This document shows positions 59-8,225 of a DNA stretch of 64,000 nucleotides, in pieces. Source of the stretch: a virus; the IMG/VR virus record IMGVR_UViG_3300017989_005036, positions 1 to 64,000 of that record. The stretch is one strand, 5' to 3'. Made by a program: the position numbers and the translations under genes. Positions within the stretch are counted from its first letter, which is position 1; every line of letters begins with the position of its first letter. The notes below the pieces were generated by a model, which did not search any database, was not told the origin of the DNA, and saw only the letters and a program-made list of their open reading frames with translations.

Positions 59-289
59 ATGTCAAAAGAAAATTGCGGCGGTCGAATCGTCAAAGAATAC
101 AATGGGTTCTTTCTCCGAGATGACTCGGACATACGAGAGAACGCAAGGATCGAACCAGTCGAAGCTTACAGCCTCTTTCGAGAAGACCCTTATGGTCGAG
201 TTGAGGTTTTCACAGGCTCCGAAGACTGGGCAATTCAACAAGCAGACAAACTTTTTTGGAATTTTGCAAAAATTAGTCTTGCAAAATAA
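59..289 (+). CDS. hypothetical protein
   Basis: 76-aa ORF; its ATG overlaps an upstream TGA. Confidence 0.6.
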   Translation: MSKENCGGRIVKEYNGFFLRDDSDIRENARIEPVEAYSLFREDPYGRVEVFTGSEDWAIQQADKLFWNFAKISLAK

Positions 290-307
290 AATGCAGGTAG
301 ATACTAT
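279..307 (+). promoter_or_regulatory. sigma70-type promoter of the leader/tRNA locus
   Basis: TTGCAA (279-284), 17-nt spacer, TACTAT (302-307). Confidence 0.7.
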
Positions 308-352
308 AACATGCTGATCGGAATTTTTCCGGCAGCAAAAGGAAACACACAA

Positions 353-427
353 ATGACTTTTTCGTTTAGTTCATCATTACTGTACTTGTATTCCCTTTCA
401 AGGGAACACGATACCGTTATGGACTAA
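353..427 (+). CDS. attenuator leader peptide MTFSFSSSLLYLYSLSREHDTVMD
   Basis: AAGGA RBS; 14 consecutive F/S/L/Y codons; stop codon lies within the antiterminator strand. Confidence 0.85.
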   Translation: MTFSFSSSLLYLYSLSREHDTVMD

Positions 428-487
428 ACGAGCACAGCACCTTACACCGCAAAGCTCAGTTGCCATAACGGCAACTGAGCTTTTTTT
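362..487 (+). promoter_or_regulatory. transcription attenuator (anti-antiterminator, antiterminator, terminator)
   Basis: 362-374 pairs with 419-431; 414-422 CCGTTATGG pairs with 463-471 CCATAACGG; terminator at 451-487. Confidence 0.85.
451..487 (+). terminator. intrinsic terminator of the attenuator
   Basis: AAAGCTCAGTTGCC-ATAAC-GGCAACTGAGCTTT, with a T7 run. Confidence 0.9.
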
Positions 488-495
488 ATTGGTGT

Positions 496-747
496 ATGGA
501 GTTTGCATTGAGAGGGTTAAGACAACACAGAGACATAAGAAAACGCCGAAAAGGTATTCGAAACAAAGGAATTCTTTGGGAATACAACGGTGACGGACGC
601 TGGCCTGAACATTGGGACGGCAAAGATAAAAGACGTTGGAAACGTTGGCGTCGAAGACAACTGAAAAACGATTTGATGGAGAGAATTGATGACAGAGAGG
701 GAAGTGGAACTGGTTGCAACATTAATCAAAATCCACTTGAAGATTGA
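496..747 (+). CDS. Arg/Trp-rich basic hypothetical protein, first gene after the attenuator
   Basis: ORF track; KRRWKRWRRRQ. Confidence 0.6.
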   Translation: MEFALRGLRQHRDIRKRRKGIRNKGILWEYNGDGRWPEHWDGKDKRRWKRWRRRQLKNDLMERIDDREGSGTGCNINQNPLED

Positions 748-874
748 CTCACTACATGAAGAATCGGCTGTGTCCGAAGAAACAGTAATGAGGTACATTG
801 AGAGCAAGCTGAGTTTTGCTCTGACAGATGAAGACAAAGAACAAATTTTGGATTACATCAAAAAACATGGATGA
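686..874 (+). CDS. hypothetical protein
   Basis: ORF with GGAGA RBS; overlaps the previous ORF. Confidence 0.55.
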   Translation: MMTEREVELVATLIKIHLKIDSLHEESAVSEETVMRYIESKLSFALTDEDKEQILDYIKKHG

Positions 875-915
875 TGAATTTAGAATTGTAACACTTGCTT
901 TATTTTGAATTAAAT

Positions 916-996
916 GGGAGTACTGGGCATTGGCGAGCCCAAGTAGCTGTAACCTACCCGTAGTATGCTGTGGCGGTTCGACTCCGTCTGCTCCCA
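916..996 (+). tRNA. tRNA-Tyr(GUA)
   Basis: acceptor GGGAGTA/TGCTCCC; anticodon loop CT-GTA-AC; T arm GGCGG-TTCGACT-CCGTC. Confidence 0.9.
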
Positions 997-1026
997 CTTT
1001 GGTCTTTTACAATTTAATGATAATTT

Positions 1027-1108
1027 GGCGGCACTGGGGTGTGGGAACCCACCGAAGCTGTAACCTTCGTGCTCATAGAGATAGGCGGTTCGATTCCGTA
1101 TGTCGCCA
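1027..1108 (+). tRNA. tRNA-Tyr(GUA), second copy with a T-stem mismatch
   Basis: acceptor GGCGGCA/TGTCGCC; CGAAG-CTGTAAC-CTTCG. Confidence 0.8.
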
Positions 1109-1114
1109 CTCAAC

Positions 1115-1164
1115 AGACAACCAAAAAAGGTTGTTTGTTGAAAGACAGCCTTTTTTGGTTGTCT
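1115..1164. repeat. long inverted repeat (about 22-bp hairpin) between tRNA genes
   Basis: AGACAACCAAAAAAGGTTGTTT ... AGACAGCCTTTTTTGGTTGTCT. Confidence 0.75.
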
Positions 1165-1168
1165 AAAT

Positions 1169-1315
1169 GGGGGAGTGGTGAAACTCACTACTGCTTTACA
1201 ACCTTGGACAGGCAACTGTCCCATTCATGAAAAGCATACAAACGGCAAACACGACATCCTTGTAAAGATGTTGCCCGAAAGGGCATTGTAGGTTCAAATC
1301 CTACCTCCCCCACCA
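1169..1315 (+). tRNA. atypical class II tRNA (Tyr-like) with a 59-nt D-loop insertion and an 8-nt anticodon loop
   Basis: acceptor GGGGGAG/CTCCCCC plus ACCA; ACATC-CTTGTAAA-GATGT; V arm TGCCC-GAAA-GGGCA; T arm GTAGG-TTCAAAT-CCTAC. Confidence 0.75.
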
Positions 1316-6000: not shown

Positions 6001-6074
6001 AAGGAGAAAACAACATGATTAAGTTCAATTTGGAGGATGGTTTCACTTAAGGCTAAAACCTTAAGGAGAAACCA

Positions 6075-6470
6075 GTGCAAAAACGTTACATTCATCATGG
6101 TCTTCGTCACATGAAGACCACACAGGAACGTCGTGCAAACGGCAAAAGACATTTTTTAGAAATCGACGATTACAAAATCAAGATTCGACCAAAACGAAAC
6201 GCAACTAATCTCCCTGAAGCATGGGATGATTACTGGATCGATGTGCCGAAGTCTTGGAAAAAACACAGAAGAACACAGTACAAACAAAACAAGCATTCAG
6301 TTTTCTTCAATATGGTTGGTTATGGTGATCAATTCAAAATTGGTGATCGAACTTATCTAAAGAAGAAAAGTTGGTCAGGCGTGCCTTATATGGATGCGAT
6401 TGAAATTGAAACAGGAAAAGAAATCAATGTTGATTGGTACGCTTTTGTAGAGTGGCCAATTAGAAAGTGA
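6075..6470 (+). CDS. basic hypothetical phage protein
   Basis: RHMKTTQERR..LPEAWDD..SWKKHRRTQYK; AAGGAG RBS. Confidence 0.7.
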   Translation: MQKRYIHHGLRHMKTTQERRANGKRHFLEIDDYKIKIRPKRNATNLPEAWDDYWIDVPKSWKKHRRTQYKQNKHSVFFNMVGYGDQFKIGDRTYLKKKSWSGVPYMDAIEIETGKEINVDWYAFVEWPIRK

Positions 6471-6473
6471 ATT

Positions 6474-6653
6474 ATGACCACTGATTACAATGGTTATAGT
6501 TGGATCAAAGTTAAACGTTATAAGATGGACGAATCGCTTTCGTGGGAAGAGCGATACAAACAACTTGAACAACATCATGTTGAGGAAACAACTTTTCTGA
6601 TCAATGAAGTCAGAAAATTGGCTTCTCAACAAAATGGATCGGATAGAGCCTAG
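6474..6653 (+). CDS. small hypothetical protein
   Basis: 59-aa ORF filling the gap before the tRNA. Confidence 0.5.
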   Translation: MTTDYNGYSWIKVKRYKMDESLSWEERYKQLEQHHVEETTFLINEVRKLASQQNGSDRA

Positions 6654-6733
6654 GCAAATATTGGTTCGTTGCGACAGACTGCTAATCTGTTCCGGTGAAA
6701 TACCCGGTGCGAGTTCGATTCTCGTGGGCTCTG
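6645..6733 (+). tRNA. tRNA-Ser(GCU)
   Basis: ACAGA-CTGCTAA-TCTGT; long V arm; G73. Confidence 0.85.
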
Positions 6734-6749
6734 CTTAGAAAGGAATGAC

Positions 6750-7466
6750 ATGATAATCAAAGGCAAACCATCTGGTGACGGCGAATGCTTCTGTTTTGAG
6801 GTTACAGAAGAGGAGTATCGTCGAGTTTGTGGTGACGAGTCATGGAAGCTCGAACTGGAAACTTTTGCCATCGACGACGAAGATGCCAGAGAATGTGGCC
6901 GTGAGCCAATTCTTCCATCTGAAAGATGTTGGCGAATTTACCCATCTGAAATCATGAAGGCTTTGAAGGTTGAACGAAACAAAGAAGTAGCTTTAGAAAT
7001 CAAAGTTCACAAAGAGAAATACCAACCAGATGAAGCTTTGGTTGCCAATGTTCGAGAATGGCTGGGAGAAGAAGGAATCAATCAGTTCCGAAAATGGAAA
7101 GAAGAACATGGAACTGTTTCTCCTGTGATTGGGGGTTTGATTCCTCATCCAGTTCATTTCCGGGAAGGAATGCATGTCAGGAACAAACTTAGAGAATTGA
7201 CCAATAATTCATGGACATCGCATGAATACGATGACCGTTGGACTTCTGTCATTGAAGAAGCGATCAGAACAGAGGCAGTTGAAATTGAAATCGAAAAGCT
7301 GAAGGAAGCTATTGACTATATTTCTAAAGTCAATAACCCTAAGCTCAAAGACCTTCGATGGATTGATGAGAATGGAGAAGAAGTTGAAGTAAGCAAAGAA
7401 CGAATGGAAGAATGGCGATTTATAGGACTTTCAAACACTATATTCGCTGAACACTATTTATTTTAA
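6750..7466 (+). CDS. hypothetical protein
   Basis: 238-aa ORF with AAGGA RBS. Confidence 0.75.
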   Translation: MIIKGKPSGDGECFCFEVTEEEYRRVCGDESWKLELETFAIDDEDARECGREPILPSERCWRIYPSEIMKALKVERNKEVALEIKVHKEKYQPDEALVANVREWLGEEGINQFRKWKEEHGTVSPVIGGLIPHPVHFREGMHVRNKLRELTNNSWTSHEYDDRWTSVIEEAIRTEAVEIEIEKLKEAIDYISKVNNPKLKDLRWIDENGEEVEVSKERMEEWRFIGLSNTIFAEHYLF

Positions 7467-7564
7467 GGATTGGCTTATGACGGAATTCAGGCGTCGATAT
7501 ACTGCACACATGGAGGCAAAAAGATTTGACAGAATTATAGAAGATATACTTGAATAACAACCAC

Positions 7565-7648
7565 GCCGGAGTGGTGGAATCGGCAGACACGCCAGATTCA
7601 AGATCTGGTGCTCATTAGAGCGTGAGGGTTCAAATCCCTCCTCCGGTA
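7565..7648 (+). tRNA. tRNA-Leu(CAA)
   Basis: canonical cloverleaf; CCAGA-TTCAAGA-TCTGG. Confidence 0.95.
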
Positions 7649-7650
7649 TT

Positions 7651-7757
7651 GAACCATGTTGAACTCAGGGTTAGATACCTTGGTTCAAATCGATCATTAC
7701 ATCACGAATAAGTAATGGTTGATTTACAGCTCTTCGTGAGAGACTGATTTATGGTTC
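7651..7757 (+). ncRNA. candidate four-way-junction structured RNA
   Basis: closing stem GAACCATG/TATGGTTC enclosing three hairpins. Confidence 0.5.
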
Positions 7758-7794
7758 TTTAAATCATCCTCATTTATAATGAAAAATAAAATTT

Positions 7795-8022
7795 ATGAAT
7801 CAAAAAACAAAAGCTATTGCTGAAGAATTAAATGAAGCATTTAAGAATGCCAATTTAACTAAAAATCAAACTACTATTGTCGGCATGGCCGATAATAGTA
7901 TTATTGTTTATGTTGAAAGAGGCGACAAATACACTGTTGAGCAAATCATCCAAAAGAACACTTCTTGGAATGAAGCAAAAATAGAGATCAAGGTTTTAGA
8001 TGGCAAAATTAAACCTCTTTAA
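7795..8022 (+). CDS. hypothetical protein
   Basis: ORF track. Confidence 0.6.
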   Translation: MNQKTKAIAEELNEAFKNANLTKNQTTIVGMADNSIIVYVERGDKYTVEQIIQKNTSWNEAKIEIKVLDGKIKPL

Positions 8023-8152
8023 AGAAAGCATCAGGAAATATTTTGAACCGCTGACGAAATGATGGTTCTGGACATATGTCTTTCCTGCGATTGTAATTGT
8101 CTCGATGGTCTTAGTATACATCGAGGTATACAATCCCGAATTGATAAAATAA

Positions 8153-8225
8153 GGCCCGGTACGCAAACGGCAAAGCGGTCTGATTTAGGTTCAGATGTCT
8201 GTCGGTTCGAATCCGACTCGGGCTA
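8153..8225 (+). tRNA. tRNA-Leu(UAG), short variable region
   Basis: TCTGA-TTTAGGT-TCAGA; acceptor GGCCCGG/TCGGGCT. Confidence 0.85.

Follow-up and report, generated by a model that had tools for sequence, protein, structure and literature searches.

The window analysed here, the first 64 kb (64,000 nucleotides, nt) of a 75,420 bp virus contig (IMG/VR record IMGVR_UViG_3300017989_005036), contains a promoter, a short open reading frame (ORF) and a transcription terminator upstream of an array of Tyr, Phe, Leu and Ser transfer RNA (tRNA) genes, among which a gene for the elongation factor EF-Tu is embedded. Most probably, a phage operon of tRNA genes and EF-Tu is placed here under a multivalent transcription attenuator of the ribosome-mediated (leader-peptide) type. 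Its sequence elements, its mutually exclusive pairings, its conservation and the co-variation of leader and array content constitute the observed part of this proposal. The decisive support comes from comparison: the unit is conserved at related loci, and leaders change with their arrays.

Leader element upstream of the tRNA array

The element is composed of the following features.

279-307, plus strand: sigma-70-type promoter (-35 box TTGCAA at 279-284, 17-nt spacer, -10 box TACTAT at 302-307)
312-337, plus strand: 5'-proximal stem-loop of the predicted transcript, in the minimum free energy (MFE) fold
339-343, plus strand: Shine-Dalgarno (SD)-like AAGGA, 9 nt before the ATG
353-427, plus strand: leader ORF of 24 codons, MTFSFSSSLLYLYSLSREHDTVMD (ATG at 353, TAA at 425-427)
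359-400, plus strand: putative regulatory run of 14 consecutive Phe/Ser/Leu/Tyr (F/S/L/Y) codons (codons 3-16)
361-374, plus strand: strand 1, located within the codon run; 5' arm of the leader hairpin, paired with 419-432 in the MFE fold
391-406, plus strand: apex mini-hairpin UUCCCU/AGGGAA at the end of the run
414-434, plus strand: strand 2, 3' arm of the leader hairpin or, alternatively, 5' strand of the antiterminator; contains the stop codon 425-427
451-469, plus strand: strand 3, terminator 5' arm plus loop, with an alternative pairing to strand 2 (463-471 to 414-422)
470-487, plus strand: strand 4 and T run (481-487), forming the intrinsic terminator with strand 3

The statements of the initial annotation on the sequence of promoter, leader, codon run and hairpin all agree with a direct reading. 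The promoter is present as claimed and recurs in the same form ahead of the leaders of related phages (TTGAAA-N17-TACTAT(A) or TACCAT). It is a predicted promoter only, scoring 8/12 against the consensus and thus under the scan cut-off of 9. Within the 64-kb window, TTG-N20-TACTAT is matched exactly at 279-307 and nowhere else. Several relatives also carry, between the -10 box and the SD, a hairpin comparable to the stem-loop 312-337, which might function, for example, in 5'-end stabilisation. Every homologous leader has GGAG, GAGGA or AGGGA 6-15 nt ahead of its start codon. In the window and in all homologs, an ORF with a ribosome-binding site is located where an attenuator requires it, between the promoter and the first regulated gene.

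The 24-codon leader contains the 14-codon run with 11 different codons exactly as had been listed, and each of the 14 can be read by an anticodon of the downstream array. In the reverse direction, 7 of the 11 array anticodons find a strict Watson-Crick codon in the leader, 10 do so with G:U wobble, and all 11 are served if U34 reads G. The earlier count of 10 of 11 anticodons with a leader codon is the one that includes G:U wobble. Contigs of related strains differ within the run by three substitutions, namely TAC to TAT (385 C>T), TCA to TCT (376 A>T) and TTA to CTA (377 T>C), and 3/3 are synonymous in the leader frame; by chance, only 44% of single-base changes would keep an F/S/L/Y codon within the set. 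Small as these numbers are, such synonymous-only variation points the same way and agrees with a regulatory leader.

Conservation of the leader among Tyr/Phe/Leu/Ser arrays

Relatives were collected by searching IMG/VR with the phage EF-Tu and scanning the matches for tRNAs. An EF-Tu gene inside a Tyr/Phe/Leu/Ser-only array was found at L001, L002, L003, L005, L006/7, L008, L009 and L032, on giant-phage contigs of up to 533 kb. All of these other distinct loci (8/8) carry an F/S/L/Y leader and a terminator just upstream of the array on the same strand. A blind six-frame scan for F/S/L/Y runs, covering all fetched DNA (643 kb), placed a run on the tRNA strand just upstream of the array in 7/8 loci; the run of L032 is interrupted and was located with the terminator. 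The relatives' leaders are SD-preceded ORFs of 24-27 codons with an ATG or GTG start and an F/S/L/Y run of 9-18 codons (e.g. MHALLSYSLSSLSSLFSEPGETAAVA, VNTLSLSLSLSYSSLYLFSDGEGCVLT, VNFFSLSLSLFSSSSLFSYSAEGGCTV, MRTLLSSLFSLSLLSSLYSDGIGGSV and MNVFLLSLSSLSGLFYSSGSGCIL), followed 20-30 nt after the ORF by terminators of -25 to -35 kcal/mol. The nine leader regions (window and eight loci) align, and their residue order is scrambled between lineages with the set of four amino acids kept, which on sequence grounds is the signature of a regulatory leader and not of a functional peptide. A metagenome pattern scan for the design GGCTGC...CCCCGGCAGC...TGCCGGGG returned mostly chance matches from GC-rich genomes and yielded three further copies of one known subfamily only (L099, L132 and L133).

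Co-variation of leader and array content

A comparison of leader codons with tRNA content at homologous loci had been proposed in the initial annotation, and its outcome is favourable: three units whose arrays are not of the F/S/L/Y type have leaders enriched in the amino acids of their own array. The first, at L012, has an array of Met, Met, Thr, Thr, Lys, Met, Lys, Lys, EF-Tu, Gly, Gly and Thr, and its leader MLSTYGCIFMTGKTTNKMTFTGKGTAVYWDE lies ahead of a terminator 440 nt upstream of the first tRNA; the Met/Thr/Lys/Gly tRNAs correspond to the leader stretch ...MTGKTTNKMTFTGKGT... The other two belong to a 436-kb phage (G001), which also holds L001. Its second unit consists of the leader MAVLIQRHGKQWCRCHKQWNNQITYLMS, a terminator of -26.5 kcal/mol and the array Asn, Asn, Lys, Ile, Ile, His, Gln, Asn, Lys, Gln, Arg, Gln, His, Cys and Lys, and here the Asn/Lys/Ile/His/Gln/Arg/Cys tRNAs correspond to the leader stretch ...IQRHGKQWCRCHKQWNNQI... 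Its third unit combines a 36-codon leader, MLTCRFTFVERTAGTTEAVAPAAVRPEGMSAVDTTV, with the array Met, Pro, Gly, Gly, Asp, Phe, Asp, Thr, Glu (three), Pro (three), Val (four), Ala, Glu, Ala and Thr (three). Both of these G001 leaders possess an extra relay hairpin and hence a six-strand design.

The fraction of leader residues belonging to the set of the own array ranges from 0.53 to 0.83, and that belonging to the sets of other arrays from 0.08 to 0.44; the sole exception is the L012 leader compared with the nine-amino-acid set of the third G001 array (0.63). Tested by class over the whole ORF against each phage's own amino-acid usage, the enrichment had binomial P values of 6e-5 (window), 8e-5, 8e-3 and 3e-5. 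Because leader tails are structural, whole-ORF tests of this kind err on the conservative side.

The 436-kb phage contains at least three leader-terminator-array units (L040:5335-5519, L041:5850-6062 and L001:8289-8428). Their amino-acid sets are F/S/L/Y, N/K/I/H/Q/R/C (plus G) and M/P/G/D/F/T/E/V/A, together every amino acid except Trp. EF-Tu genes in tRNA arrays of other amino-acid sets are also present in other giant phages (L004, L012, L020 and L028).

Chance occurrence of the codon run

Alternatively, the small ORF might encode a functional hydrophobic micro-peptide or be untranslated, in which case the hairpin and T run would end an upstream unit and the match with the tRNAs would be a coincidence aided by U-rich sequence. 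An upstream ORF (59-289) indeed ends just before the leader element, and F/S/L/Y runs do arise by chance: the six frames of the 75-kb contig contain seven runs of at least 10 codons, two of which have at least 14, the second of these lying antisense to a gene. The single locus is therefore only modestly significant, suggestive and not decisive. F/S/L/Y make up 22% of the codons in the long ORFs of the phage, and a shuffled U-rich run reads all-F/S/L/Y in only 4e-5 of trials; U-richness therefore does not explain the run. The initial annotation had put the chance of the run at about 1e-8 under uniform codon use.

A coincidence is further contradicted by the presence of the element upstream of every Tyr/Phe/Leu/Ser array found, with an order scrambled and a set kept in a manner unlike the evolution of a functional peptide. 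Ahead of other arrays, the leaders have a hydrophilic composition that fits the respective array. Complementarity of the coding tail to the terminator arm is seen in every lineage, and the promoter sits between the upstream ORF and the leader. A micro-peptide or a coincidental match is consequently regarded as very improbable.

RNA structure of the leader region

The MFE fold of 310-495 (-70.7 kcal/mol, z = -8.0) is composed of the 5' stem-loop 312-337, a large leader hairpin with the base helix 361-374/419-432, and the terminator. The leader part of the fold has a z score of -4.4 compared with shuffles. Each F/S/L/Y leader has an equivalent of the apical mini-hairpin in a different sequence (UCGCU/AGCGA and others), and this mini-hairpin could possibly act as an RNA polymerase pause hairpin. 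The terminator is GC-rich, with a core stem 454-464/470-480, an extension 451-453/481-483, seven T and a hairpin energy of -19.8 kcal/mol. No other strong plus-strand terminator was found in 1-9000.

In the alternative conformation, the predicted 2:3 antiterminator combines an exact 9-bp complementarity, 414-422/463-471, with the pairing 428-433/454-460, the partners in the window being CCGUUAUGG/CCAUAACGG. This duplex (-14.5 kcal/mol, z = -2.5, P = 0.007 compared with shuffles) takes 10/14 nt of the terminator 5' arm, and 13 nt of strand 2 are predicted to be used in both the 1:2 and the 2:3 pairing. The computed structures thus display the hallmarks of an attenuator, namely a terminator before the regulated genes, exclusive 1:2 and 2:3 pairings and regulatory codons in strand 1. 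The four-strand geometry with the stop codon inside strand 2, as initially described, is reproduced by folding and recurs in predicted structures of the relatives with different sequences.

The stop-codon region of every F/S/L/Y leader forms pairs with the 5' portion of the codon run, and the motif TTAGTC...GACTAA recurs among these leaders, so that the stop codon itself is paired. Folding with a ribosome footprint, another check proposed initially, was carried out with the ribosome placed mid-run and strand 4 left untranscribed, and the antiterminator pairing appeared in the modelled structures of the window and of the relatives' F/S/L/Y leaders. Under these conditions the coding tail engages the terminator loop and the distal part of the 5' arm, and in most lineages the spacer GGGG also pairs with CCCC at the base of this arm; altogether, the antiterminator occupies a predicted 10-17 of the arm's 14-19 nt. 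The antiterminator partners differ by lineage (GGGGAAGGCUGC/GCAGCUUUCUCC, GAGG..GGCUGC/GCAGCC..CCUC and UGGAGGGUC/GGCCCUCUC). The conserved leader tails G-E-G-C, G-G-G-C and G-S-G-C are explained by RNA constraints, because the tail pairs with the terminator arm. Compensatory changes affect 15/19 terminator pairs in the family alignment. RNAalifold on the MAFFT alignment recovered the terminator and a small helix only; the leader hairpin and the antiterminator were found sequence by sequence.

The structured leader with its string of codon-like triplets also calls to mind a switch made of RNA only, in which the run would serve, triplet by triplet, as a direct binding site for tRNA anticodons, in a T-box-like manner, or for a protein, and the ORF would be untranslated. 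T-box riboswitches are established to sense tRNA directly and thereby control a terminator. Neither a T-box nor any other Rfam family, including the leader families (Thr_leader, Leu_leader, His_leader, Trp_leader and others), matches 200-950, however, in a cmscan search with E values up to 10, and 14-18 specifiers in one helix arm are without known precedent. Moreover, SD, start codon, open frame and the stop codon inside strand 2 are kept in every family member, and the variants seen are synonymous in the leader frame. Such an untranslated switch is hardly credible as an explanation. The window element would work like the Rfam amino-acid leaders, but is not a member of them by sequence.

Proposed mechanism and its limits

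From the sequence we infer translation of the leader, actual termination or read-through, and the reach of the regulated transcript, according to the following scheme. Transcription would start at the promoter 279-307, and a ribosome would load on the 24-codon leader. Fast decoding of the Phe, Ser, Leu and Tyr codons would bring the ribosome to the stop codon, where it would cover strand 2, allow the 3:4 terminator to form and stop transcription at about 487. When any of the required ternary complexes of aminoacyl-tRNA and EF-Tu is scarce, the ribosome would stall within the run (strand 1). Strand 2 would then be free and could engage strand 3 ahead of the synthesis of strand 4; no terminator would form, and read-through would lead to transcription of the small ORFs, the Tyr/Phe/Leu/Ser tRNA genes and EF-Tu. 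With no ribosome on the leader, the 1:2 and 3:4 pairings would result in termination. The outcome would be a negative feedback, in which slow reading of their codons raises the supply of just these tRNAs and of EF-Tu. A tRNA and EF-Tu operon behind such a sensor would form a closed feedback loop, because the ribosome senses the EF-Tu/aminoacyl-tRNA ternary complex.

Attack by a host anticodon nuclease as the trigger, as suggested in the initial annotation, is speculation, and codon-usage mismatch, host shut-off or amino-acid starvation are possible alternative triggers. The attenuator might also serve as a general gauge or timer that senses amino-acid starvation or overall elongation speed (e.g. 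the load in late infection) and not tRNA loss, with the leader-array match only picking the relevant codons and anticodon nucleases playing no role. A stalled ribosome cannot tell a missing from an uncharged tRNA, as is established for the trp and his attenuators. The same unit also includes EF-Tu, a factor common to all tRNAs, and the neighbourhood of the leader gives no sign of a nuclease or defence context. Extra tRNA, on the other hand, helps only where the tRNA and not the amino acid is limiting, and the strict split of amino acids among the leader-array units of one phage argues for block-specific sensing. A general gauge of this kind is considered unlikely.

Several observations weigh against the leader-peptide attenuator proposed here. 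Searches upstream of the second G002 array and of the arrays in G003, G004 and G010 detected neither a leader nor a terminator, and in G004 a promoter directly abuts the first tRNA. The device is missing at several giant-phage arrays and is therefore lineage-specific and not universal. The second G001 leader contains two Trp codons, with no tRNA-Trp found in its array, and reaches a whole-ORF P of only 8e-3. The diversity of codons in the window run, considered as a design feature, is unremarkable: 11 distinct codons in 14 correspond to random synonymous choice (P = 0.25-0.37), and only in the L002 leader does the diversity exceed the random level (P = 0.011). The terminator hairpin is more stable than the antiterminator duplex (-19.8 and -14.5 kcal/mol, respectively), so the switch must work kinetically, as in classical attenuators. 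The window has no second TTG-N20-TACTAT promoter, but internal promoters may still exist within the 8-kb array and limit the reach of control, and the whole 8-kb cassette, including EF-Tu and the RNA resembling that of the signal recognition particle (SRP), is not supported as one attenuator-controlled transcript. None of the RNA runs searched for the window DNA contains it. The scheme also presupposes a host that couples transcription with translation and uses SD-led initiation.

With these reservations, uncultured giant phages appear to apply an attenuation logic to the very supply of tRNAs and EF-Tu, with four to nine amino acids per sensor. If true, this would explain the sorting of tRNA genes into amino-acid blocks in these phages, and phage tRNA sets would be regulated on demand and not constitutive. 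It would also give a direct handle on the purpose of phage tRNAs, i.e. compensation of codon usage versus replacement of depleted or cleaved host tRNAs, and provide compact natural parts whose transcriptional output depends on how fast chosen codons are decoded. For the annotation of giant-phage genomes, the content of a leader can serve in practice to predict that of its array. As a more tentative extension, on which our judgement is nearly balanced but leans to caution, giant phages may run modular closed-loop controllers, in which blocks of tRNA genes, some with EF-Tu, each stand behind a leader that samples the codons of that block and replace tRNAs that become short during infection through tRNA-cleaving defences, host shut-off or codon-usage mismatch. 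If so, the leaders would be natural multiplex sensors of tRNA supply.

Comparison with known systems

Leader-peptide attenuation is known for amino-acid biosynthesis operons and for one synthetase operon. In the textbook examples, the leaders of thr (Thr and Ile), ilvGMEDA (Ile/Leu/Val), trpL, hisL, leuL and pheL, a short leader with a cluster of regulatory codons is combined with 1:2, 2:3 and 3:4 pairings, an intrinsic terminator and a stop codon in strand 2, as in the window. The multivalent thr and ilv attenuators sense, like the phage leaders, more than one amino acid, and the his attenuator has a six-strand relay resembling that of the second and third leaders of the 436-kb phage. Unlike the enterobacterial leaders, the phage unit controls tRNA genes and EF-Tu and not biosynthetic enzymes, samples four to nine amino acids and is encoded by a giant phage. 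The pheM leader of E. coli pheST is an established case of leader-peptide attenuation acting on a gene of the translation apparatus and responds to the charging of tRNA-Phe; in contrast to the phage unit, it is cellular, senses a single amino acid and controls a synthetase. T-box riboswitches share with the phage unit that tRNA status sets terminator read-through upstream of translation-related genes, but a T-box binds one uncharged tRNA via a specifier codon and the T-box sequence without translation, whereas in the phage unit the features of an ORF are conserved.

Co-transcription of tRNA genes with EF-Tu is also a feature of the bacterial thrU-tyrU-glyT-thrT-tufB operon; in the phage, in contrast, the tRNA set beside EF-Tu is a sorted amino-acid block. 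The bacterial tRNA-tufB operon is not known to possess a leader-peptide attenuator. The EF-Tu search also returned loci of this bacterial type, with Thr-Tyr-Gly-Thr tRNAs before tuf (L014, L022 and L023).

Of the published systems found, the trn operon of Anabaena sp. PCC 7120 comes closest in function; this long array of supernumerary tRNA genes normally stays silent and is switched on by impaired translation (PMC8421152). Its control relies on direct repeats in the promoter that are bound by the repressor TrcR (PMC8421152, PMC10272220). This is a promoter-repressor control without a leader, and the words leader and attenuation are absent from the text (PMC8421152). The initial annotation had suggested that a tRNA array under an isoacceptor-sampling leader was not yet described; in the full-text literature searched, outside which most subscription journals lie, leader-peptide control of tRNA genes was indeed not reported.

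The window, its array and neighbouring genes

The genes of the window include those for helicases, AAA ATPases, a carbamoyltransferase and a full-length EF-Tu. A terminal repeat was not found at the contig ends. The window DNA occurs in sediment and seawater metagenomes, and a search for near-identical DNA in phage records gave a tRNA-Leu match only. The following features lie downstream of the terminator.

496-874, plus strand: two small ORFs between terminator and first tRNA, 496-747 (basic 83-aa product) and 689-874
916-8225, plus strand: same-strand tRNA array (ARAGORN and Rfam) with interspersed small ORFs, in the order tRNA-Tyr GUA (two), atypical tRNA, Phe GAA, EF-Tu, Leu CAG/UAA/GAG, Ser UGA/CGA, SRP-like RNA, Ser GGA/GCU, Leu CAA/UAG
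1416-2615, plus strand: EF-Tu gene, inside the array
5137-5207, plus strand: SRP-RNA-like element between two tRNA-Ser genes

All tRNA genes of the 75-kb contig are located at 916-8225 on the plus strand. ARAGORN predicted 11 of them, or 12 at a relaxed threshold (Ser-UGA, 4949-5034), and Rfam adds the atypical tRNA at 1169-1312. In total, 13 tRNA-like genes were verified with the two programs, and the fourteenth gene claimed initially could not be confirmed. The atypical gene is 144 nt long, matches the Rfam tRNA model with 36.4 bits, is not called by ARAGORN and seems to hold a large insert. The SRP-like element matches Bacteria_small_SRP of Rfam at 5162-5207 with 33.7 bits, below the gathering score of 40, and covers model positions 23-68 only.

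The ORFs between terminator and first tRNA (496-874) have no Pfam family and no relative in viral contigs, including a search via ORF 496-747. As a handle on relatives, ORF 6750-7466 gave three unrelated loci only and was abandoned. ORFs between terminator and array are also present in L005, L008 and L009. In L005 (2760-3900) and L008 (4500-5700), the first gene between terminator and tRNAs encodes a conserved protein (MGWATGYI..RPRGSSMKGKV..G.LCTV) that looks like an S24/LexA-type peptidase fold. Within its Tyr/Phe/Leu/Ser array, L005 additionally has an ARAGORN-predicted tRNA with the anticodon CUA (9230-9320; suppressor or Pyl-like, reading UAG), which hints at stop-codon reassignment or suppression in that phage; the L005 leader contains no UAG codon.

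The window EF-Tu shares 66-73% identity with the other phage copies and at most 64% with EF-Tu of many phyla (Bdellovibrionota, Planctomycetota, Calditrichaeota and others). These values point to no particular host, Planctomycete or otherwise.

A perfect 16-bp palindromic hairpin (2622-2657) lies between the EF-Tu stop codon (2613-2615) and the tRNA-Leu(CAG) at 2661. It scored as terminator-like on the minus strand and may represent a processing site or a barrier to antisense transcription. Lastly, in a closely related strain (49-kb contig from a seawater run), 564 other letters replace positions 855-991 including the first tRNA-Tyr, and 28 nt are deleted at 1121. The head of the array is thus variable among strains, whereas only a single synonymous change separates the leaders.

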